Below, piece after piece: positions 380 through 10,576 of a stretch of 41,114 nt of DNA (positions are counted from its first letter, which is position 1; the number at the start of each line of letters is the position of its first letter). The translations under genes were made by a program, and so were the position numbers. Under the pieces are notes generated by a model, which saw only the letters and a list, made by a program, of their open reading frames with translations, was not told where the DNA came from and did not search any database. Source of the stretch: a virus. Taxonomy: Duplodnaviria > Caudoviricetes. The stretch is taken from the IMG/VR virus record IMGVR_UViG_3300036987_000048, positions 1 to 41,114 of that record. One strand, given 5' to 3'.

Positions 380-1545
380 CGGTGAACCTCACAAATTGCT
401 TTTATTATTTGAAAGGCTACGGCGGGAACAATCGCATTACCTAGAGCCTTTAGTCGGTTAACTCTGTCCAATTTTTGGGGTAGCCCATCATCCACTCGAC
501 AAAGGCGGGTTGCAACTTCAATCCACGGGATTCCCCAACTACTTCCCCTAGATTGCATTTCCCTCTGTCCTCCTTCGCATCCTTGTGCATAAATTGCCTC
601 GGTGTCGGGAGCATGGCAATCCTCGATGCATCCACAATATGTTCCTGTTGATTCGGTCTGCTGTTGGTGGGCAACAATCCACACCCTATCCCTTCTATGG
701 GGCGCGTTGACGGCGCAAGCTGGAAGACAGAACGTTTGTGTTTCATAGCCTTGATTTTCCAATTCAGTAAGCAAATAGTCGAATACCACGCCCTGCTCAA
801 GACTAAGGAGTCCAGCAACATTTTCAAGGATGCACCACCTTGGCTTGACTTCGGCAATGACTCTAAAAGTTTCTTCCCAGAGCCAACGGTCATCGTTATG
901 GCCTCCTCGCTTCCCGGCACAACTGGCTGGCTGGCAAGGAACCCCTGCTGTAAGAAGGAATATTGGTTCATTTTTCACCCCTTTGGTGAGGACAGGTTCC
1001 GTGGTGTGATCTTGCATTATTGCAGTTGTAACAGAGGATTTGATAGTCGTCTGGCAACCCTCTTTTGATTGCAAGTTTCCATGTTTGAGATTTGTATTTT
1101 CTGCGTTCCGCATTACCATTGTTGTATTTATGGTCGATTGTGAGGAACTCTCTTTGTGATTCTCCGCAACAAACGCATTTCCCTCCGTAGTGGGCAAAGA
1201 TTTCTTGTTTTTTCCTCTCGCAGTATTCTCTGCGACTTTTTCTGTGTCTTTCGATGTTTTGTTCTCTCCAAGCGGCAACTCGTTTTGTGTTACACGGTCT
1301 GCAATACGACTCATTAGGAGCGACTTCGCTTTCCCTACATTCTGGGCATATTCTAGCCATTGATCCTCCGGTGCATAATGAAATGTTTTAATGTCATCCC
1401 AAATCGGTACTCCCTTAAAATTTTTCTGTAAGACCTTCTGGCAGAAAGGGTCTATCTCAACAAACTGAACCGTCTTAATTCCGTTCCACCTTGCCGCTAA
1501 AGCAAAGCCGCCAATGCCGGAGAACAAATCAATATGCGTTCTCAT
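376..1545 (-). CDS. dcm: C5-cytosine DNA methyltransferase, alpha polypeptide, with ~135-aa insertion
   Basis: Motif I DLFSGIGG, IV GVPCQP, VI ENV, VIII HRRDRVWI and X LGNAIVP are present. A canonical motif IX is not evident in this frame. A long insert lies between DDIKTF and LTAGVPCQ. Confidence 0.92.
   Translation of the reverse strand: MRTHIDLFSGIGGFALAARWNGIKTVQFVEIDPFCQKVLQKNFKGVPIWDDIKTFHYAPEDQWLEYAQNVGKAKSLLMSRIADRVTQNELPLGENKTSKDTEKVAENTARGKNKKSLPTTEGNAFVAENHKESSSQSTINTTMVMRNAENTNLKHGNLQSKEGCQTTIKSSVTTAIMQDHTTEPVLTKGVKNEPIFLLTAGVPCQPASCAGKRGGHNDDRWLWEETFRVIAEVKPRWCILENVAGLLSLEQGVVFDYLLTELENQGYETQTFCLPACAVNAPHRRDRVWIVAHQQQTESTGTYCGCIEDCHAPDTEAIYAQGCEGGQREMQSRGSSWGIPWIEVATRLCRVDDGLPQKLDRVNRLKALGNAIVPAVAFQIIKAICEVHR
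450..971 (-). CDS. Putative MTase beta polypeptide (TRD/motif IX) in an alternative frame, EcoHK31I-beta-like
   Basis: Contains MLPTP and a C-terminal LQPAFVEWMMGYPKNWT resembling motif IX. Has an SD-like GGGGTG, and its ATG overlaps the HNH stop. Confidence 0.7.
   Translation of the reverse strand: MNQYSFLQQGFLASQPVVPGSEEAITMTVGSGKKLLESLPKSSQGGASLKMLLDSLVLSRAWYSTICLLNWKIKAMKHKRSVFQLAPSTRPIEGIGCGLLPTNSRPNQQEHIVDASRIAMLPTPRQFMHKDAKEDRGKCNLGEVVGESRGLKLQPAFVEWMMGYPKNWTELTD
968..1360 (-). CDS. HNH endonuclease nested inside the MTase gene
   Basis: N-terminal CxxC..CxxC, then CVCCG..LTIDH..N..QILCYNCN HNH core; GGAGG SD at 1365-1369. Confidence 0.85.
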   Translation of the reverse strand: MARICPECRESEVAPNESYCRPCNTKRVAAWREQNIERHRKSRREYCERKKQEIFAHYGGKCVCCGESQREFLTIDHKYNNGNAERRKYKSQTWKLAIKRGLPDDYQILCYNCNNARSHHGTCPHQRGEK

Positions 1546-1583
1546 CGCTTCACCTCGCCTCCAGTTGAATTCCCCTCATGATA

Positions 1584-2138
1584 TCACTGCAAAAGTTTTG
1601 TTTTATGATTAAAACCTATCTGAACAACTTCAATTTCTATTTCATGTCCGGTCTTGAAATTTTCCTGCTCACACGTCCCGACGAGGTAATCAGGATGTTT
1701 TCCCGCCCGCGCTGAAATAACGTCATAAAGTCGCTCAAACTCTTTCTGCTTCCACTTCTCTTCACTCTTTTCCATCATGCAAAGCTGTGGCCAACCACCC
1801 ATAGCGTTAATCACCGAATGAATGGCAGGATCATCAAACTTAACACTCTGATAATTTCCGATCCGAGCAACCGAATTTAAAACTTCCAGCCAGGCCAATG
1901 TAGCCTTATTCGCTTTCTTGCCTAGGAGAATATCCCGGAAATCTGCTGGCTTTGGGAAAAATTTATTTTCATAAATAATTTCTTTAAATGCCGCTTCACA
2001 CTCTTCATCGCTAAACGGCTCTAAAACTTTCCAGTATAAATCCGTCAGCAACTTCGACATGGTGCGGTCGTGAAGTTCACAAAGCGTTGCTAAATATTCC
2101 TTGAATTTAATTTCGTCTCTCATGCCGGAGGCCTCCAT
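1584..2138 (-). CDS. Replication-module protein (DUF6475-like / helicase-loader position)
   Basis: FFPKPADF motif and FDDPAIHSVINAMGGW segment; directly downstream of the initiator. Confidence 0.65.
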   Translation of the reverse strand: MEASGMRDEIKFKEYLATLCELHDRTMSKLLTDLYWKVLEPFSDEECEAAFKEIIYENKFFPKPADFRDILLGKKANKATLAWLEVLNSVARIGNYQSVKFDDPAIHSVINAMGGWPQLCMMEKSEEKWKQKEFERLYDVISARAGKHPDYLVGTCEQENFKTGHEIEIEVVQIGFNHKTKLLQ

Positions 2139-2869
2139 TCATCAAGCATTTTGACAGTTCTGATTGTTTTATCTGATACTTTTCCGGCGAGGGGGTGGGA
2201 TTCTGTTTCCTCATCTTCCCACCTTTTCCCATTTAACCACGTCGCCGGATATGGGATATATTTCCCTTTTTCTTTTATCCACTCAGCAGATGTTTTTGAC
2301 TTATTGATTACCTCAATGATTGTTTCTAATAACTCATTATCGGGATTCAGTTTCTTAAATGCTTTCTCTGCCTCTTTCTTTGCTTTCCTTTTAGGGTATG
2401 TTTTCCAGAACTTCAAAAACGCATCATTTATTTTATTTAGATCAGATAAAGATATAGGATAAGATTCCCCGCCATCCGGCGTGTCGTTTTCTCTTAACCG
2501 TCCATTAACCGTTAATAATCCGTTAAATGGTGGTAATAAACTTTCTTTCTCTGTGTTGTGTGGTGATTGATGTTTGTTAAATTCAGGAATATCTATATAA
2601 TTTCGGTTATTTACCGTATAGCGGCGAATAAAAACCTTTTCTGGTCGATCTTGAATTTTGGGGCAACAGAGCATATTTAGATATTTCTCTATGTTAATAT
2701 TGTCGTACGGGAAAATTTCAGCCTTTAAATATTTTGGCCTATCTTCTAACCTGCCCTCTCGATCTGCAAAACACCACATTCCCTGATAAAGCAATCTGGC
2801 CTCATAGGGTAGTGTCGCTAAATCTTCATCTTTAAAAAAGTCTGGTTTCAATGATCTTATTCTTGCCAT
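2120..2869 (-). CDS. Phage replication initiator (replisome organiser)
   Basis: MARIRSLKPDFF..ARLLYQGMWCFADREGR N-terminus and FWKTYPKRKAK..YPATWLNGKRWEDE C-terminus, typical of lambdoid initiators. Confidence 0.85.
   Translation of the reverse strand: MARIRSLKPDFFKDEDLATLPYEARLLYQGMWCFADREGRLEDRPKYLKAEIFPYDNINIEKYLNMLCCPKIQDRPEKVFIRRYTVNNRNYIDIPEFNKHQSPHNTEKESLLPPFNGLLTVNGRLRENDTPDGGESYPISLSDLNKINDAFLKFWKTYPKRKAKKEAEKAFKKLNPDNELLETIIEVINKSKTSAEWIKEKGKYIPYPATWLNGKRWEDEETESHPLAGKVSDKTIRTVKMLDEWRPPA
2493..2530. repeat. Short iteron-like repeats (TAACCGT/CCGTTAA) within the initiator gene; candidate origin
   Basis: cttaaccgtccattaaccgttaataatccgttaaatgg in the linker region of the initiator gene, where lambdoid origins lie. 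Confidence 0.45.
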
Positions 2870-2907
2870 TTTCTTCTCTTACTCTCCCTTTGAGTTCCCT
2901 AATTATT

Positions 2908-2960
2908 GGGCGGCAGGGCGATAGGGTGTCGCCTTTTCGGGTCATGTTCCCTAGCCGCCT
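2908..2960 (-). ncRNA. Structured cis-RNA element upstream of the replication gene
   Basis: Outer stem GGCGGC/GCCGCC encloses an inner GGCGA/TCGCC hairpin and a CCCGAAAAG segment; GC-rich island in an AT-rich context. Confidence 0.35.
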
Positions 2961-3343
2961 TGTGAATTAAATTTCTCCAACATAACTTTAAGCGTGATCT
3001 TCCAATTCTCTTTAAAAAACTGGTTATTTTTTACGATTTGATTTTTTCGTTCTGTTAATTCTTGAAGCCATCCTTCGGGTCTCTTTCCTGATTTAAGCCA
3101 TTTTTCTTTAAAGTCGGGGTCAAGGTGAGCCGCTTCGTTTCCGTTGGTATGGTGGATATGGCAGAGGCAAATCCCATTAAGGGGGTCATACCGGACAGAT
3201 TGATTTTTCTTATTGTAATAGTGGTGTGGGTGTAATTGCGTTGCGTTAACCGTACATCCGGGGTATTCGCATTTATAATTGGCTTGCTTTAGAACAGCTT
3301 CACGAAACATTTTTAAAAGGGTTGCGTCTGATACTTTTCTCAT
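2951..3343 (-). CDS. NinG-like HNH nuclease
   Basis: CEYPGC..HPHH..RYDPLNGICLCHIHH. Confidence 0.75.
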   Translation of the reverse strand: MRKVSDATLLKMFREAVLKQANYKCEYPGCTVNATQLHPHHYYNKKNQSVRYDPLNGICLCHIHHTNGNEAAHLDPDFKEKWLKSGKRPEGWLQELTERKNQIVKNNQFFKENWKITLKVMLEKFNSQGG

Positions 3344-3906
3344 TCGTCCACCCCCCTCGTTCCGTCAAAGCACTGAGCAACCAAATCGGTAGCGTCCATA
3401 GCCTCTAAATCAATATTTCGGGTATGCAGGGCTAGTTTGTTTCGCCAGTAAATCGCAAGATGAATAAATCCAAACTCCAAACACTTGATAATTCGTTTCG
3501 CGCCCAGCCGCTTAAATTCGGCCAGTAGCTTCTCTTTCCATTCCTGCCGGAAGGTCTGTTCGTCCACGGTGATAATCTGATTTGCTCGCCGGTGTACTTC
3601 TTGTGCCCATTCTTCTGTGCGGACGCCCGCCCTTATAATGGCCTGCCTGAATAATCTTGGCGATAAATGAGCGGATAATAAATTGCCTGTATGATGACCG
3701 GCGCAGAGATTTATGGCGCAAAAATAATCGTATTTTATTGCTGTATTTGTTCTCTTGGAAAACCAATGGTGGGGATCGCAGTCGGTGTTTTTGCATTCTG
3801 GAAATTCGCAATGGCCGCCGGCGCGGATGGAAACAATTTCGCGTAGAAGGTTATCCAGATATCGATCAGAAATACAACTCATTCGCCCCCCGGCTATGTC
3901 AGACAA
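3340..3906 (-). CDS. NinG-like HNH nuclease paralog (likely start 3882)
   Basis: CEFPEC..DPHH..KYDYFCAINLCAGHH; visibly similar to the adjacent gene. Confidence 0.7.
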   Translation of the reverse strand: MSDIAGGRMSCISDRYLDNLLREIVSIRAGGHCEFPECKNTDCDPHHWFSKRTNTAIKYDYFCAINLCAGHHTGNLLSAHLSPRLFRQAIIRAGVRTEEWAQEVHRRANQIITVDEQTFRQEWKEKLLAEFKRLGAKRIIKCLEFGFIHLAIYWRNKLALHTRNIDLEAMDATDLVAQCFDGTRGVDE

Positions 3907-3937: not shown

Positions 3938-4153
3938 TTATAATTTATCCATGTCAACTTTCGCTTGTGGGAAAAGAAACGCCATTAATGGAACTTTTCC
4001 CTCTGTCAATTCATGAAACTTTTTAGCATTCGCTGGCCGCAAAGGACGACCGTTATATGCTCTCCAAACTGTTGCATTTGAGCACTTTTTTTCATCAGCA
4101 AAAGCGTTGGGTGTGATTTTTTTATCATCCAGATATTTTTTGAATGTTTTCAT
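3938..4153 (-). CDS. cro: Cro-like HTH regulator
   Basis: 71-aa basic HTH; first gene of the leftward arm, divergent from the cI-like ORF. Confidence 0.7.
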   Translation of the reverse strand: MKTFKKYLDDKKITPNAFADEKKCSNATVWRAYNGRPLRPANAKKFHELTEGKVPLMAFLFPQAKVDMDKL

Positions 4154-4161
4154 GGAAAGGG

Positions 4162-4190
4162 ATTATTTCACAAGTGAAGATAAAAGTCAA
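4162..4190 (-). promoter_or_regulatory. sigma70 promoter for cro (probably leaderless mRNA)
   Basis: TTGACT (4190-4185), 17-nt spacer, AATAAT (4167-4162); the cro ATG at 4153 has no SD. Confidence 0.65.
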
Positions 4191-4444
4191 GGACAAATTT
4201 CCACTTATGGAGAGCGTATCCTTAGTTGAAAATGAATTGAATCGGCGCGGCTGGAATAAAGCCAGATTAGTTAAGGAATCTGGAATCAGTTCAAGGGCCG
4301 CAACCTGTTTTTTTCAAGATGGGAAAATCAACTCTGAAAATACTTTCCGAATTTTACATATATTTTACCCCCTTTTAGGCATTCCTGCAAGAAAAAATCT
4401 TCATATATGTAAAATATTTCTTGACAATGTTCTTCACTTATGAA
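4167..4444. promoter_or_regulatory. Repressor operators, consensus TTCA-N4-TGAA
   Basis: TTCACAAGTGAA 4167-4178, TCCACTTATGGA 4200-4211, TTCATATATGTA 4400-4411, TTCACTTATGAA 4433-4444; two lie in promoter spacers. Confidence 0.7.
4207..4443 (+). CDS. CI-like XRE HTH repressor, apparently C-terminally truncated
   Basis: RRGWNKARLVKESGISSRAATCFF HTH. No S24 peptidase domain; the last ~25 codons run through operator/promoter DNA. Confidence 0.55.
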   Translation: MESVSLVENELNRRGWNKARLVKESGISSRAATCFFQDGKINSENTFRILHIFYPLLGIPARKNLHICKIFLDNVLHL

Positions 4445-4449
4445 ATACT
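4421..4449 (+). promoter_or_regulatory. sigma70 promoter of the rightward early operon
   Basis: TTGACA 4421-4426, 17-nt spacer, AATACT 4444-4449. Confidence 0.7.
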
Positions 4450-4638
4450 TCCATCAAACAAAAGCCCGCTTATCTCTGGCGGTCGCAACACGAAGACGCA
4501 GAGAGTATCAACTGAAATAGAAGTCGTAGGTTGGGAGTGAAGCGGATGAGGAGGCGAAAGTGGAAATTATTTTTGCAACTGTAGTGGCGTCAATCATTGT
4601 CGCGGGCGGCGTTGTACTTTGCGGCGCAATCAGGAGGG

Positions 4639-4779
4639 ATGATGAAAGAAATAGACGTGATCGCTTTGGCGACGACGAAATTTAAGAGGCCTGTCCAGGC
4701 TGAGGAGATTGCCGGAATGGGCTTTGCCGTCTTCTGCCTGATCGTCGCTGGAATTTGTATCGTGCTGAGGTGGGTATGA
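4639..4779 (+). CDS. Small membrane protein
   Basis: GGAGGG SD before ATG 4639; C-terminal hydrophobic helix. Confidence 0.55.
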   Translation: MMKEIDVIALATTKFKRPVQAEEIAGMGFAVFCLIVAGICIVLRWV

Positions 4780-5036
4780 AAGCCTATTATAACGAGAGAA
4801 CACGGCGGCTAGAGTTCCGCGACGATTCAGGGATGGGCAGAAAAATCAAGTTCGTCATTCTTGCTCTTCCAGTTCTTTTTCTCATTATCGTTGCTCTACT
4901 TTTGGCCGTCGGCGTCACACCGGAGCCAGCGAAAAAGGCCGCGACTATCGAGATCAACGACACGCTGCACCACGGAATAGATAAGCGCGGGAACATTGTG
5001 TACGAAAACGAAACGCACGTATGCAGGATCAAATGA
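4776..5036 (+). CDS. Small membrane protein
   Basis: ATGA-coupled; one transmembrane segment. Confidence 0.6.
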   Translation: MKAYYNERTRRLEFRDDSGMGRKIKFVILALPVLFLIIVALLLAVGVTPEPAKKAATIEINDTLHHGIDKRGNIVYENETHVCRIK

Positions 5037-5332
5037 ATCAGTGGACTTTTGAAGATTGGCTGAAAGTCGCCCGGTATGAGGGACCGGTTGACCCGATGAT
5101 TGACTTCGACCGGCTGCAAGGACAGACGAAACGCATCCACGATTTAATGATTGATGGCGTTTGGCGGACACTGGCCGAGATCGAGGCTATTACCGGATAT
5201 CCGCAAGCGAGCGTGAGCGCACAACTCAGGCATTTGAAGAAGAGTCGCTTCGGCGGGCACATCTTAACTAAGCGCCGCCGATATGAAAACAAAGGTGTTT
5301 GGGAATATGAGCTTTTAGAAAGAAAATATTAG
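5033..5332 (+). CDS. Winged-HTH phage protein
   Basis: WRTLAEIEAITGYPQASVSAQLRHLKKSRFG HTH; ATGA-coupled start. Confidence 0.75.
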   Translation: MNQWTFEDWLKVARYEGPVDPMIDFDRLQGQTKRIHDLMIDGVWRTLAEIEAITGYPQASVSAQLRHLKKSRFGGHILTKRRRYENKGVWEYELLERKY

Positions 5333-5340
5333 GAGGAGCA

Positions 5341-5535
5341 ATGCCAGACGTTATTAGAGAGGGCACTAATCAGTACGGATATCCGACAATCGGCGTCTGC
5401 ACGGTTACTAAAAGCGGTGAGTTTTGGACTGATCGTAGTTTAAAATTTTGGCAAACCGTATTGGATAACATCGACCGCATACGGCAGATCGTTGACCGCC
5501 AGGAACATCCGCATGGACATGACGACAAATATTAA
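5341..5535 (+). CDS. Hypothetical protein
   Basis: AGGAGGAG SD; operon context. Confidence 0.7.
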   Translation: MPDVIREGTNQYGYPTIGVCTVTKSGEFWTDRSLKFWQTVLDNIDRIRQIVDRQEHPHGHDDKY

Positions 5536-5550
5536 AATCAGGAGGCCGAG

Positions 5551-5793
5551 GTGACACCCACTTATACAATTAAATATCAGGTTGATGAAAAAGAGTTTGA
5601 AGTTGACATCGAGGACGTTCTTTTAGGCAAAACCGGACTGTGCTTAGAGAAGCGAACCCTTGCCGATTATCGGGTGGTGGGTGTCGGTGATCGGGCAGAC
5701 GAAAGCACGATAGGACTGATGGAAACGATAATTAATCTTAACTTTGAAAACTTTGAAAAACAGGCAGTACAACAACTGATGGAGAGAGTATGA
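5551..5793 (+). CDS. Hypothetical protein
   Basis: AGGAGG SD, GTG start, overlaps next gene. Confidence 0.65.
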   Translation: MTPTYTIKYQVDEKEFEVDIEDVLLGKTGLCLEKRTLADYRVVGVGDRADESTIGLMETIINLNFENFEKQAVQQLMERV

Positions 5794-6524
5794 TCGAACA
5801 CGCTAAAGAATCGGGGCATTGGTATAAAAAAGACGGAACTCCGGCCTATACGATAATCGGGAAGAACGGCAAAGAGCGAAACACGACCTTGAGGGACGCA
5901 CGGAAAGAAAACCTTTTGCCAAGCGTGACCTCAATTATCAGACTTGCGGCGGCTCCGGGGCTTGAGAACTGGAAAGCACAGCAAGTCTTGATGTCGGCGT
6001 TGACCTCAGAACGAAAACCGGACGAAACGGAAGAACAGTACATAAGCCGGATTATTTCAGATGCGAACGAACAGTCTTTAAAGGCGAGGGAAAGAGGAAC
6101 TTTAATTCACGCCTATGTTCAGAGTGGCTTTGAGGGTGAAACACTAAACAGCGAGGCGTATAAATATTATTTATCAGCCAAAAACACGATTGAGGATGAC
6201 CTTAATGTAGAAATGGATTGGATATGTGAAATGCCATTCGCCGCAGATAGATACGGAGGAAAGATAGACCTACGAAGCCCCGAATACATTATCGACATCA
6301 AAACAACCGAAAAGGATTTAACGGAAATTAAAACATGGGACGAACACGCCATGCAGTTGGCCGCCTATCGTAGCGGTCAACAGAAATGCGGAATACTTTA
6401 TATCAACGTCAACACGGCAGAGTCAAAACTTATCTGGATTGATGAGGAAGAACTTCAAAAAGGTTGGAAGTGTTTTAATGCACTATTAGATTTTTATTAC
6501 GCAAAAACAGGACTAGGAGGATAA
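5790..6524 (+). CDS. PD-(D/E)xK exonuclease
   Basis: LPSVTSII..RGTLIH..E..YGGKIDL..IIDIKT..QLAAY motifs; adjacent to ERF. Confidence 0.85.
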   Translation: MIEHAKESGHWYKKDGTPAYTIIGKNGKERNTTLRDARKENLLPSVTSIIRLAAAPGLENWKAQQVLMSALTSERKPDETEEQYISRIISDANEQSLKARERGTLIHAYVQSGFEGETLNSEAYKYYLSAKNTIEDDLNVEMDWICEMPFAADRYGGKIDLRSPEYIIDIKTTEKDLTEIKTWDEHAMQLAAYRSGQQKCGILYINVNTAESKLIWIDEEELQKGWKCFNALLDFYYAKTGLGG

Positions 6525-6525
6525 T

Positions 6526-7263
6526 ATGGAAAACATAGCAGTTTATGAAGCAATTAACGCAGTTCAGGATGATATGGCGAAGGTTGGAATTTCCAAAGAT
6601 AAGAAGAACGTACAACAGGGATATAATTTCAGGGGCATTGATGATGTGTACGGCGCACTAGCACCGTTACTCGCTAAACATAAACTTTGCATTATCCCCT
6701 TTACCGTCAACCGGACGGTTACAGAAAGGACAACAAAATCCGGTGGCGCATTGTTTTATGTCACGGTTGATTGTGAGTTTCATTTTGTGTCTGCCGTTGA
6801 TGGCTCCAAGCATATCGCACGAACTTTCGGTGAAGCAATGGATTCGGGTGATAAGGCAACAAACAAAGCCATGAGTTCCGCTTATAAATATGCCGCATTT
6901 CAGACATTCTGTATTCCGGTTGACGTTGTTGACGCGGACGCTGAAACACATGAAGTAATACCCAAGGCCAAGAAAGACGTTAAGGAAACCGCGCCAGAAA
7001 AAAAGGCACAACCGGTTCCAGAGCCACAAGAAAACATCGTTGTTTTTTCTACACTTAAAGACATTCAAGTAAAATCAGGAAAGACAAACGGGAAGGATTG
7101 GAAACTCTTTACTCTGTTTACTGATACAGGCGACACCTACGGGACATTCGATGAAGCCACAGCAGACTTAGCAAGCTCCCTTATTAAAAGCGGTGATTTG
7201 GCGAAGATTGAGTTTTCCATGACCACAAAAGGCAATAAGCAGATCGTATCATTGGAGCAGTAA
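6526..7263 (+). CDS. erf: ERF-family single-strand annealing protein
   Basis: YNFRGIDDVY and GEAMDSGDKATNKAMSSAYKYA..FCIP motifs. Confidence 0.9.
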   Translation: MENIAVYEAINAVQDDMAKVGISKDKKNVQQGYNFRGIDDVYGALAPLLAKHKLCIIPFTVNRTVTERTTKSGGALFYVTVDCEFHFVSAVDGSKHIARTFGEAMDSGDKATNKAMSSAYKYAAFQTFCIPVDVVDADAETHEVIPKAKKDVKETAPEKKAQPVPEPQENIVVFSTLKDIQVKSGKTNGKDWKLFTLFTDTGDTYGTFDEATADLASSLIKSGDLAKIEFSMTTKGNKQIVSLEQ

Positions 7264-7656
7264 ATGAATCCAGTATTTACCGGCAGAATAGAAAAGGGCA
7301 AGTATATTCTCGATAACACGAACCGTTACCTTGTACAGGTCAGCAGACTTGAAGGGCAGAGAATTGAACTTGTATTAAGAAAAGAGAAAAGTCAGAGAAG
7401 CCTTAACCAGAACTCGTATTATCATGGTGTAGTTGTGGCGATACTTGCTGAATATTGCGGGTACGAGCCGGAAGAAATGCACGAAGCGTTAAAAGACAAG
7501 TTTCTTTCGGTGGGATTAGACGACCACGGCTTGAAGAAGATCAAAAGCACGACAAAGTTAAGCACAACTGAAATGGAAGATTACCTAGAAAAGATTAAAA
7601 GATGGGCGGCGACTGAACTGAATTGCTACATTCCAGATCCAAACGAGGCGATATGA
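7264..7656 (+). CDS. NinB/Orf-like recombination accessory protein
   Basis: RSLNQNSYYH..EEMHEALK..STTKLSTTEMEDYLEKI. Confidence 0.75.
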   Translation: MNPVFTGRIEKGKYILDNTNRYLVQVSRLEGQRIELVLRKEKSQRSLNQNSYYHGVVVAILAEYCGYEPEEMHEALKDKFLSVGLDDHGLKKIKSTTKLSTTEMEDYLEKIKRWAATELNCYIPDPNEAI

Positions 7657-8333
7657 ATATGTATAAAAAATGCACAAAATGTGGAGAGGAAAAACGACTA
7701 ACTGAATTTTTCATACGTAAAGACGGCGGAGATGGATATAGATCAAGCTGTAAAAAGTGTATGGCTACTGCTAAAAAAATATATGAAGTTTTAAATCGTG
7801 AATCTATTATAATCGCACGGAAAAAATATTACACAAACAATAAAGAAAAGATGCGAAAAGCAACTCAATTATGGATTAAAAACAATCCCGATAGAATAAA
7901 ACTCCTCCAAAAAAAATGGAATTTAGAAAATATTGATAAAAGACGTGAATATAGAAGAAAGGCTATGAGAAAAAAAAGACAATCAGTAAAGGGGAAATTA
8001 AACTCAAATATATGCATAGGGATCTGGCGTACTATACGTGGTACAAAATCAAATAGACACTGGTAGGTCTTGGTCGGATACACGATTGACCAACTAAAAG
8101 ACCATCTTGAAAAATTATTTACCAAAGAAATGACATGGGACAATTATGGAATTTTTTGGGAGATTGACCATAAAGTTCCTATTGCAGTATATAATTTTGA
8201 ACAGCCAGAAGATATAGATTTTAAATTATGTTGGTCACTGAAAAATTTACAACCACTGGAATGTTCTAAGAATAGAAGTAAGGGTGATAGCGTTGGAAAA
8301 CCATTTCAACCTTCATTGTGTATGTCTATATGA
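7653..8333 (+). pseudogene. HNH endonuclease interrupted by an in-frame TAG (8064-8066)
   Basis: ORFs 7623..8066 and 8070..8333 share a frame. Joined, they give CTKC..CKKC, a basic helix, RHW*VLVGYT..WEIDHKVP..CWSLKNLQPL..N. Confidence 0.8.
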
Positions 8334-8429
8334 AAAAATTTTGGCACAAACATAGCTGTCTGGTGTGCAAGACGTTGATTTACGCTCTTGACGAAAAGAG
8401 GCTCAATGAAGCGATTTTTGGAGGCTTAA

Positions 8430-8618
8430 ATGCAACAATTAACAGAGGAACAATGTGATAATTTCCGTAGGACTAGGGGAGATTTTAACAACATGGTTAA
8501 TACGATCTATCAAGCTGGTAGAATGAGCGCGGCGCAAGAGGCATATGATTGCGTGTTTAGTACGATAGATGAATCGAGATCGAGAATTGAAGAACATTTC
8601 GATTTCAAGGCTGATTAA
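8430..8618 (+). CDS. Hypothetical protein
   Basis: GGAGG SD; operon context. Confidence 0.65.
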   Translation: MQQLTEEQCDNFRRTRGDFNNMVNTIYQAGRMSAAQEAYDCVFSTIDESRSRIEEHFDFKAD

Positions 8619-8620
8619 TA

Positions 8621-8676
8621 ATATAACGAAAAAATCAGCCGAAGTGTAGCGCTCGGCTGGATTTACTTGGTTATCT
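8621..8676. mobile_element. attC-like recombination site 1 (56 bp)
   Basis: ATATAAC-gaaaa-AATCAGCCGA...TCGGCTG(G)ATT-tacttg-GTTATCT: AAC/GTT core sites, unpaired spacers, inner inverted repeat with one extrahelical base. Confidence 0.75.
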
Positions 8677-8698
8677 TAATATTTGAAAGGAGTAAATC

Positions 8699-9022
8699 AT
8701 GAGCTTGGATGTAATGCTGACGGAAGTAAAAGAATGCGAGATATTCAGCCAAAATATTACGCACAATCTTGGAGCAATGGCAGAAGAAGCAGGAATATAC
8801 AAACATTTATGGATACCTGAAGAAATAGGAATAACAACAGCTATTGACTTAATCCAACCACTTAAAGAAGGAGTTGCGTTAATGAAGAAGGAACCTGAGA
8901 GGTTTAAGAAATTTAACGCTTCTAATGGGTGGGGAATGTATGAAGATTTTGTTCCGTGGATTGAGCGATATATTGAAGCGTGTGAATTGAATCCGGGGTC
9001 AAAGGTAAGTGTTTCAAGATAA
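8699..9022 (+). CDS. Phage hypothetical protein (cassette A cargo)
   Basis: AAGGAG SD; NITHNL..MA..AGIY..NGWG motif; stop codon lies within the AGATAAC core site. Confidence 0.85.
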   Translation: MSLDVMLTEVKECEIFSQNITHNLGAMAEEAGIYKHLWIPEEIGITTAIDLIQPLKEGVALMKKEPERFKKFNASNGWGMYEDFVPWIERYIEACELNPGSKVSVSR

Positions 9023-9064
9023 CGCCGACATCAGCCGCTTGTCGGCTGCATGGAATTGTTAAGT
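9017..9064. mobile_element. attC-like recombination site 2 (48 bp)
   Basis: AGATAAC-gccga-CATCAGCCG-cttgt-CGGCTG(C)ATG-gaatt-GTTAAGT. Confidence 0.75.
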
Positions 9065-9087
9065 GGGTTTTAAATAAAGGAGTTTAA

Positions 9088-9327
9088 ATGAAATATCAAG
9101 ATGTTGTTAATTCGTGGAATGCTCAAGCCGATGAGTTTAATCAGTGGACTGAATTATGTTCAGAAGAGATGGTTGATTACGCCATTAAGTTAGAGCGTGA
9201 AAGATTATCATCTTTACTACAAAAGGCAGGGGCTACTATTCCCGCACCTCCTCCAACGGGGACAATAGAAGGTGCGATGAATATGGGCCTTTGCATTGCG
9301 TTGTCACTGGTAGATGATGACACTTAA
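9088..9327 (+). CDS. Hypothetical protein (cassette B cargo)
   Basis: AAGGAG SD; stop lies within CACTTAAC, the reverse complement of GTTAAGTG at 9058-9065. Confidence 0.75.
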   Translation: MKYQDVVNSWNAQADEFNQWTELCSEEMVDYAIKLERERLSSLLQKAGATIPAPPPTGTIEGAMNMGLCIALSLVDDDT

Positions 9328-9589
9328 CAATTAATATACCAAGTTGGTATTTTATTGGTGGGTGTGGAAAGTAGTTATAAATTAGTAGATTAGACAAGAA
9401 ATGAACTTATTACTTGAGAGGTATAAATTATGGCAATAATAATACAGAATTAAATGCCCAAAGTGTGCAGAATGGGAAAAAGATTTAAAAGATTTAATTG
9501 AACAAGAAAAAATAATTATCGAACAGGAAAAGGACAAGCGTTCTGCTCACCAAAGCGGGATGGTAACACACAATTAAGGTGGGGGAGAA

Positions 9590-9787
9590 ATGAAAGAGGA
9601 AAAGTTCATACCGGCAAGCGATGTCACTGATGAAGGTTCCTATAAAATTGATATGGGTGATGGTGACGGTACTTGGTTAGATATAACAGTGTATAAGCGT
9701 AAGGGGAAACTATTTCTGATTAATCCAGAGAACAACAAGGAATGTTGTTTAAAGGGAATACACGGATGGGTATTCCAAAAACTATGA
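9590..9787 (+). CDS. Hypothetical protein
   Basis: GGGGAG SD; operon context. Confidence 0.65.
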   Translation: MKEEKFIPASDVTDEGSYKIDMGDGDGTWLDITVYKRKGKLFLINPENNKECCLKGIHGWVFQKL

Positions 9788-9789
9788 AG

Positions 9790-10057
9790 GGAGGCAAGCC
9801 ATGAATGACCAAGATAAGAAACTTATATTTGATTATTTGAGGTGGGAATACTGGGCGTGGGGAATAAAAGATTTTAATGGTAATGACATTCTTGAAGCTG
9901 TTGGAATTATGGAAGAGATGGGAGACATGCCAGAGTTTGAATCGTTCTGTTTTTCAAACGCTGACAAGAAAAGAATTTCGCAGTTTTATACTTTTACTTA
10001 TCTTCTCAAAAACTTTTTCCAGCTTCTTGCTGATTGGTTGAAGGAGGCAAGCCATGA
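9790..10057 (+). repeat. 15-bp direct repeat GGAGGCAAGCCATGA at two consecutive gene starts
   Basis: Exact copies at 9790-9804 and 10043-10057. Confidence 0.8.
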
Positions 10058-10061
10058 GTGA
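9801..10061 (+). CDS. Hypothetical protein
   Basis: GGAGG SD. Confidence 0.7.
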   Translation: MNDQDKKLIFDYLRWEYWAWGIKDFNGNDILEAVGIMEEMGDMPEFESFCFSNADKKRISQFYTFTYLLKNFFQLLADWLKEASHE

Positions 10062-10413
10062 TAAAGAAATGACTGACGACCATATTAATAAACTGATTGC
10101 GGAGAAGCTGGGCTTAGGATTCCAGTATAGTAGAAAACCAATTATCTTCACCGAAAACGCAAAGGTGCTGCTAGGGGAATTGAAGGAGAAAGATTATAAA
10201 GATTACGGTAATTTTGTTAATAATTTGCCAGTAGAAATTCAATTATCTTACGACCGTGGTATGCTCTTACTTGATATTCACTATCATTTCGTTATAGAAT
10301 TTATAAATACTTATATCCTCAACCCTCGCCTGTTGTGTGAGAAGTATTTGGAGTGGGAGGGCAAGCAAATTTTTTGCGGTAAATGCGAAGCAAAAAGCGA
10401 AAACACTATCTAA
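10054..10413 (+). CDS. Hypothetical protein
   Basis: GGAGG SD; last clear gene of the rightward operon. Confidence 0.65.
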   Translation: MSDKEMTDDHINKLIAEKLGLGFQYSRKPIIFTENAKVLLGELKEKDYKDYGNFVNNLPVEIQLSYDRGMLLLDIHYHFVIEFINTYILNPRLLCEKYLEWEGKQIFCGKCEAKSENTI

Positions 10414-10576
10414 GATTTGGGAGTGGCTACACGCTCACGGCTACGACACAGAGGCAAAGATAATAGCCCTTATTAATGAGTATGCGGAGTTGATGGCGAG
10501 AGAAAAGGAGTAGTGTTTTAGATAACCCTAGCCAGTATCAACAGGTACAAGACAGCAGTTAGAAGCCAGGGTAGTT

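Follow-up and report, generated by a model that had tools for sequence, protein, structure and literature searches.

The window, meaning the whole stretch of 41,114 bp analyzed here, is a viral contig whose 63 open reading frames (ORFs), when scanned against PHROGs, point to a tailed phage whose terminase, portal, and head genes lie on the minus strand. The same scan reveals a rightward early operon (approximately positions 4,100 to 10,500) that carries exonuclease, Erf, and NinB genes along with small genes and converges on the lysis genes. The best promoter candidate for this operon, including the cassette genes described below, is a sigma70-like element on the plus strand at 4421..4449 (TTGACA-17-AATACT with TG, 10/12), a consensus match only, from a scan that found 23 sites versus 16.4 expected and is hence weak. 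A search for an origin of replication found no iterons in the region 1500-3400. Inside the early operon sits an array formed by two attC sites, which are 396 bp apart on the same strand.

A sequence-only reading of this DNA had proposed that two hairpins in the operon have the attC layout, and their coordinates were verified. By this layout and by covariance scoring, both hairpins are attC sites. Each has inverted R″ and R′ cores (AAC ... GTT) with unpaired spacers of 5 to 6 nt. As integrated, attC1 occupies 8620..8677 on the minus strand (27.8 bits, rough E-value 8.3e-6), with its G|TT crossover on that strand at 8627|8626. The second site, attC2, is a short-loop form at 9016..9065, also on the minus strand (33.9 bits, rough E-value 1.3e-7), with its crossover at 9023|9022. 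The verified cores are AATATAAC (8620-8627), GTTATCTT (8670-8677), AAGATAAC (9016-9023), GTTAAGTG (9058-9065), and CACTTAAC (9321-9328). An extra base in the L″ box sets the strand polarity of an attC site. The L″ and L′ boxes of attC2 form 7/7 pairs, position 4 of L″ holding a single extra base, and the model alignments place the extrahelical base of both sites on the minus-strand reading, giving a bottom-strand G for attC1 and C for attC2.

These scores come from our own covariance model (R1), built from 35 bacterial attC sites in arrays located with a search pattern derived from the two window sites; the pattern matches themselves were left out, and the source arrays hold the same attC subtype as the window. 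Under this model, both sites exceed the 20-bit attC covariance threshold used by Qi et al., and they are the only matches below E 0.3 in the 41 kb, both on the minus strand. The plus-strand reading of site 1 reaches 12.3 bits, and otherwise nothing falls below E 0.7. A strict attC-geometry scan of the contig matched attC2 alone, with 0.03 matches expected from 60 block shuffles. Folding gave unusual stability for site 1 (z-scores of -4.25 on the plus strand and -3.78 on the minus strand); the fold energy of site 2 is not unusual compared to shuffles (-1.1 and -1.6). In the folds calculated for excised circles, both sites are more stable (-14.7 versus -11.3 and -13.7 versus -8.2 kcal/mol). Rfam returned nothing relevant in 8200-9800.

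It had also been claimed that the cores pair across genes rather than within a site. Pairing across both genes is indeed 8/8, for which the joint chance probability is approximately 1.5e-6 given local base frequencies and taking the GTT/AAC cores as given. Within-site pairing is 5/8 at site 2, so the claim holds there, but it is already 7/8 at site 1, which makes the contrast weak at that site.

The search pattern matched 124 loci in the 23 of 64 parts of the genome collection that were scanned. Other attC-like sites in the pattern loci favor one strand by 67 to 4, that of the pattern's reverse complement, compared to 2 in shuffles. Among the 80 loci with flanks, a motif screen flags seven recombinases, six of which pass the TIGR02249 integron-integrase cut-off. 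The best local matches to the attC1 body are chromosomal sites (L293, L144, L136, and L129), and the top matches to attC2 are all in other viral contigs (L070, L069, L059, L204, and L078). The R1 model found no match in P12002L, one of the phages checked for comparison with Qi et al., or in the 13 of 61 exonuclease-relative loci that were searched (best identities 59-61%). Separately, positions 8636-8659 of attC1 also score on the minus strand as a terminator-like hairpin, which would halt antisense read-through arriving from the attI side.

Each core-to-core interval holds a single ORF, which is preceded by the ribosome site AAAGGAG and ends in a TAA stop codon located within the core, in agreement with the earlier proposal of one gene per interval. 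Cassette A (8627..9022, minus strand, 396 bp) consists of the attC1 body and a reversed ORF A, which encodes 107 amino acids on the plus strand at 8699..9022 (ribosome site at 8686-8692). Cassette B (9023..9327, minus strand, 305 bp) consists of the attC2 body and a reversed ORF B, which encodes 79 amino acids on the plus strand at 9088..9327 (ribosome site at 9076-9082). The two cassettes together measure 701 bp. The ORF at 8430-8618 upstream of the array was considered as a further cassette and ruled out, given that no matching GTT core or attC precedes it.

The cargo is of phage type, as the sequence-only reading had supposed. ORF A belongs to phrog_4019 and has 2768 homologous clusters; the Atlas clusters are 89-94% viral, and their leading annotation is DUF7739 (0.93, 41% of members). 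In the likely host order identified below, a search of 301 genomes found ORF A homologs in 0 and Erf in just 1. Pfam and NCBIfam searches returned no match for ORF A. The predicted structure of its product is confident and helical (pLDDT 96), without a PDB match at E 0.001 (best Z 5.7), and its matches in BFVD are solely uncharacterized phage proteins. ORF B has no family match, and its 10 homologous clusters include several that resemble assembly variants. Among 31 cassette proteins from viral loci with related reversed arrays, eight are DNA-modification proteins (seven methyltransferases and one Mom-like protein), one is an HNH nuclease, three belong to unknown families, and 19 have no match. 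Because the identifiable cargo is mostly DNA modification, the phage arrays may feed anti-restriction, and host integrons may feed defense.

Some reversed arrays (L002:4672-4758 and 4923-5008, L007:1871-1994, and L018:2403-2507) place a ribosome site and start codon within the attC loop, such that the first protein residues are encoded by an attC arm. A different arrangement is seen for the ORF A homologs in L027-L041, L045, L046, and L049, which bear on both sides a repeated promoter-like element ending in TATAAT. We take these repeats to resemble PeSL cassettes, and one cargo family would thus occur in two different cassette systems.

The more unusual features of this array are two that the sequence-only reading lacked, namely the polarity of its genes and its attI. 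The attC top strand in the window is the minus strand and the cassette genes lie on the plus strand, and hence the genes are reversed relative to bacterial cassettes. Because the top strand is the minus strand, the plus (gene-coding) strand is the recombinogenic bottom strand. At 84 pattern sites in bacterial loci, counting ORF-bearing cases, the adjacent ORF shares the top strand of the attC site in 62 of 72 cases on the left and 48 of 64 on the right. Bacterial arrays are forward in 42 of 48 scored intervals, after 23 low-fill intervals were dropped; two of the six reversed intervals, both in L082, hold PHROG-type genes. For viral loci, 36 of 46 intervals count as reversed under a longest-ORF rule, which sometimes errs.

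The same orientation is evident among loci chosen for an ORF A homolog regardless of attC. In the 32 of 49 such loci searched (17 were omitted by eye, 16 for repeated promoter-like flanks and one as a near-duplicate), all 22 model hits are opposite to the gene strand. The sequence-only reading had suggested looking for attC-flanked homologs of 8699..9022 elsewhere, and six of these 32 loci (L007, L008, L012, L017, L018, and L019) carry the homolog in a reversed cassette whose cores cross-pair 8/8 and whose attC bodies differ. Phage PH101 is likewise reversed, with four model hits on the plus strand and annotated genes on the minus strand (L245:31120-33188; NC_029094 at approximately 75,900-78,000). 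Forward genes exist in phages too, as in TJE1 and the viral loci L052, L077, and L079, and reversal is therefore not universal in phages. Reversed arrays with phage-type small genes also occur in two contigs placed in bacterial bins, from an Endozoicomonas MAG (L082) and an Omnitrophota MAG (L117); these are probably prophages or mis-binned phage contigs.

The promoter-distal end of the array carries a third site on the minus strand at 9326..9347, which by sequence and position is judged to be a host-type attI, with a 14-nt core at 9326-9339 and a crossover at 9328|9327. Its hairpin was considered as a decayed attC and ruled out, because it has no model hit and matches a host attI. A stretch of 23 nt (9325-9347) recurs exactly in three other viral contigs (L204, L205, and L207), where the attI again closes a reversed array and the neighboring sequence is different each time. 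A homolog of cassette B is the last cassette before the identical attI in L204. The attI motif is absent from the fetched flanks of the remaining attC2-like viral loci.

Allowing up to three mismatches, the 22-mer is found in 109 of 301 genomes from the order that includes genome G001 (titled Syntrophaceae bacterium UBA6255), versus three reversed-control hits. We take this order to be Syntrophales. Of 151 genomes in the order, 54 encode an IntI that scores above the TIGR02249 cut-off. At 12 of 23 loci encoding the long form of IntI (TIGR02249, open frames of approximately 405-460 amino acids), the 14-nt core (exact in eight of them) is located 130-223 bp upstream of intI and on the other strand, in a sample with 20 loci hand-picked from a list; the corresponding count for short-form loci is 0 of 12. 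From the identity of the attI site alone, we infer a Syntrophales-like host.

At metagenome loci with the identical attI, the first gene is forward and begins 10-84 bp past the crossover in 12 of 12 cases, and the R1 model detects attC sites in 11 of the 12. The same attI thus precedes forward genes in bacteria (12/12) and reversed genes in phages (4/4). The four phage attI loci also have in common an AT-rich stretch (9348..9415 in the window; alignment A2) that is unlike the sequence upstream of bacterial attI sites. Upstream of attI, the promoter scan returned no minus-strand consensus site that could be a Pc-type promoter.

Some bacterial genomes carry several copies of the motif, with nine matches in G039 and seven each in G002, G102, G115, and G221. 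Many of these copies (for example, among L218-L242 and L293-L304) have no intI in the fetched flank, are followed by forward arrays, and have approximately 130 bp of conserved upstream sequence. They look like dispersed satellite integration platforms that share one integrase. Multiple attI copies without an adjacent intI would make IntI service in trans look routine in the host order.

The earlier statement that no tyrosine recombinase is encoded in the window stands: PHROGs searches of the 63 ORFs found none, and searching all six frames of the 41 kb with IntI gave a best E of 0.43. The contig has no terminal repeat, and its completeness is therefore unproven. Consequently, the shuffling described below could in principle be due to a phage-encoded or helper-element integrase (beyond the contig, in a co-infecting phage, or on an island) rather than to a chromosomal IntI. 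An integrase may lie beyond the contig ends, although the last part of the early operon, where a relative (L307) carries an integrase-like gene, is within the contig. We nonetheless regard this source as improbable, given that the 41 kb lacks a recombinase and the attI is that of a chromosomal IntI clade. An attI is said to be recognized only by its cognate integrase (PMC2095811).

Natural variants of the array were found by comparing assembled contigs from four runs (X1-X4) of four studies over positions 7600-10400. Contigs of X1, which may be the window's source, match the window unchanged. Both X2 and X3 contain a joint from 8622 to 9019 that omits exactly 396 bases, with six shared letters and sides of 60 and 77, and cassette B joins the left flank directly. 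The length of this skip is that of the unit predicted earlier; it fits crossover on the minus strand and, together with the model strand, rules out a plus-strand reading in which the cassette would measure 388 bp. A second joint, from 9324 to 8624 in X3 and X4, sets cassette A behind B, with four shared letters and sides of 210 and 58; in X3, letters of the attC1 body follow directly past 9328. In X2 and X3, 546 other letters separate cassette A from attI, which defines a third cassette (C) of approximately 557 bp, although the joint is supported by a side of just 30 in X2 compared to 87 in X3. The end motif of cassette C was not found in viral contigs.

One X3 contig (record 18) reads left flank-B-A and another of similar depth (record 19) reads A-C-attI, giving the order left-B-A-C-attI versus left-A-B-attI in the window. 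The B-attI joint is present in X2 as well, and the contigs of that run cannot be assembled into one order. The pieces of the variant contigs differ from the window by 0 to 2 letters, and X5 and X6 have no contigs over 9030-9500. All three joint types, from three other studies, span TAA|C with four to six shared letters, and the phage flanks on both sides remain constant while the cassettes differ. Such contigs establish the presence of joints rather than their direction or timing, and at this level they document cassettes that were naturally excised, reordered, and gained at the crossover base. No free circle was seen. The idea that the phage gains and shuffles accessory genes is thereby borne out, with near-identical genomes gaining, losing, and reordering them at the AAC/GTT cores.

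Other changes occur beside the array. In X2 and X3, the stretch between two copies of the repeat GGAGGCAAGCCATGA (a ribosome site plus start codon at 9790-9819 and 10043-10072, flanking an ORF at 9801-10061) is replaced, with a joint from 9809 to 10047. This second gene swap appears to be of the homology type. Additional variant joints lie at 10112-10156 and 10197-10312. On the other side of the array, an HNH/endonuclease VII-like gene (7623-8333) is interrupted by an in-frame TAG at 8064-8066 that a 164-bp X2 contig spans with no letters different.

Homology-type swapping thus occurs in this phage, and its operon encodes Erf, an exonuclease, and NinB. It might therefore be reasoned that the attC sites are integron relics, with recombination by these phage proteins through short homology producing PeSL-like rearrangements; attC1 and attC2 are, after all, 77% alike over 22 nt. 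However, the joint from B to A has only four letters in common, and the joint from A to C replaces B beside attI, where homology between attI and attC is limited to the core. Every joint falls on the IntI crossover, the swap in order requires excision plus reinsertion, and the extrahelical bases and an intact attI are retained. Given these characteristics, we consider recombination of relics very unlikely.

The variants also bear on whether the phage took up the array passively as a fragment of a host integron, with its variants arising in the chromosome and being acquired as blocks. The near-identity of attC1 and attI to host sites would fit such an origin, and Qi et al. suggest capture via off-target or illegitimate recombination (PMC9892861). 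Yet both flanks are phage sequence that stays unchanged while the cassettes vary, and the cargo is of phage type and absent from the 301 host-order genomes. Furthermore, the phage genes are reversed, whereas host arrays behind the identical attI are forward in all 12 cases. Passive capture is already largely refuted by these findings, and we judge it extremely unlikely.

We therefore favor another explanation, and with considerable confidence: the locus is very probably an integrase-less mini-integron, with a host-type attI and two attC cassettes reversed in the early operon, whose cassettes a host IntI likely excises, reinserts, and adds in trans. IntI is described as recombining the folded bottom strand of attC, excising cassettes by attC x attC recombination and inserting them at attI (PMC5371416, PMC9892861). 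The bottom strand is preferred approximately 1000-fold, which orients cassettes to Pc (PMC5371416), and IntI1 is active on phage attC sites (PMC9892861). During infection, the long-form IntI of a Syntrophales-like host would act on the phage DNA in trans. New cassettes would enter at the attI (9326-9347), the end of the array farthest from the promoter. The A-B and B-A-C arrangements would be linked by one excision and reinsertion at attI plus one gain or loss, as in the usual cycle of an integron.

With attI directed against early transcription, the phage early promoter would read only those cassettes whose genes are reversed. Host cassettes of the ordinary kind would insert in antisense and be silent, and selection would fill the array from a reversed, phage-type pool. 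Many cassettes of Vibrio integrons are reported to be anti-phage (10.1101/2024.07.02.601686), and reversal may thus serve as an expression filter against host cassettes. Such a reason is not required, given the forward arrays in TJE1, L052, L077, and L079. Alternatively, reversal may place the bottom strand on the lagging template and speed turnover (PMC5371416).

We speculate, while leaning slightly against the idea, that phages and hosts maintain a mirror-image integron economy, wherein phages keep attI backwards, borrow host IntI, and trade private cassettes of reversed phage genes. Reversal would make the two pools mutually silent, such that the phage could not express host cassettes, many of them for anti-phage defense, nor the host those of the phage. 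If this is true, phage genes set tightly between attC sites would offer a living window on cassette making.

Integrons are treated as bacterial devices, and attC clusters in phages have been considered rare and possibly passive. The mini-integron reading would add a site-specific way for phage early operons to turn over their accessory genes, and the attI sequence could be a means of predicting phage hosts. The 701-bp pair of cassettes would make a compact test system for the action of host IntI on phage DNA. In addition, a phage gene family that has attC sites in some phages and lacks them in most bears on how genes become cassettes.

By definition, the array is a CALIN, with at least two clustered attC sites and no intI found in the contig. 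It functions in the manner of an integron, although an incomplete one: an attI is present at the array head, intI is absent, and the genes are off the attC top strand and antisense to attI. The array resembles the chromosomal integrons with long-form IntI from the order of G001 in its 14-nt attI core, attC family, G|TT crossover, and cross-paired cores, which are 7/7 in 36 of 48 bacterial cassettes. Unlike those integrons, it lacks intI, has antisense genes and a different sequence upstream of attI, and carries cargo from phage families.

Two other cassette systems invite comparison. The PeSL cassettes of T4-type phages (Arbiol et al. 2010, PMC2839356) are likewise small, non-essential genes shuffled between repeats, and mini-circles accompany them. 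However, PeSLs are promoter-plus-terminator repeats that recombine together, whereas the elements here are attC and attI sites with no evident promoter and joints that share four to six letters. In the window, no plus-strand promoter consensus occurs at attC1 or attC2, and attC1 is terminator-like on the minus strand only. Insertion at attG sites and the resulting SALINs (10.1101/2022.09.11.507474) also involve placement of cassettes by IntI far from an integron in small clusters lacking an integrase, but the receiving site here is a conserved host-type attI and not an arbitrary genomic site.

The closest precedents are the phage CALINs of Qi et al. (2023, PMC9892861), the sole paper on phage-borne attC clusters found in the searched, mostly non-subscription literature. 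Its authors report 17 CALINs in 10,705 genomes and recombination by IntI1 of five out of six phage attC sites, and note that a prophage CALIN of Shewanella M16-3 has an attI. As in those phages, at least two attC sites here bound small phage-type genes located among accessory genes without intI. Integrase-less attC clusters in phages are thus already published, and that part of the earlier suggestion is not new. The accessible text of PMC9892861, which calls the PH101 structure typical, contains no report of reversed genes or shuffling, and no description of reversed phage cassettes or of shuffling at a phage attI was found in the searched literature (mostly non-subscription text, excluding figures, annotation files, and supplements that may show gene orientation), although PH101 from that paper is itself reversed. 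Compared to the CALINs as that text describes them, the array has reversed genes, the attI of a specific host IntI clade, and natural variants that display excision, reordering, and gain. What is added here is the link between an attI and a host IntI clade, an orientation contrast at the same site, and natural shuffling at the crossover base.
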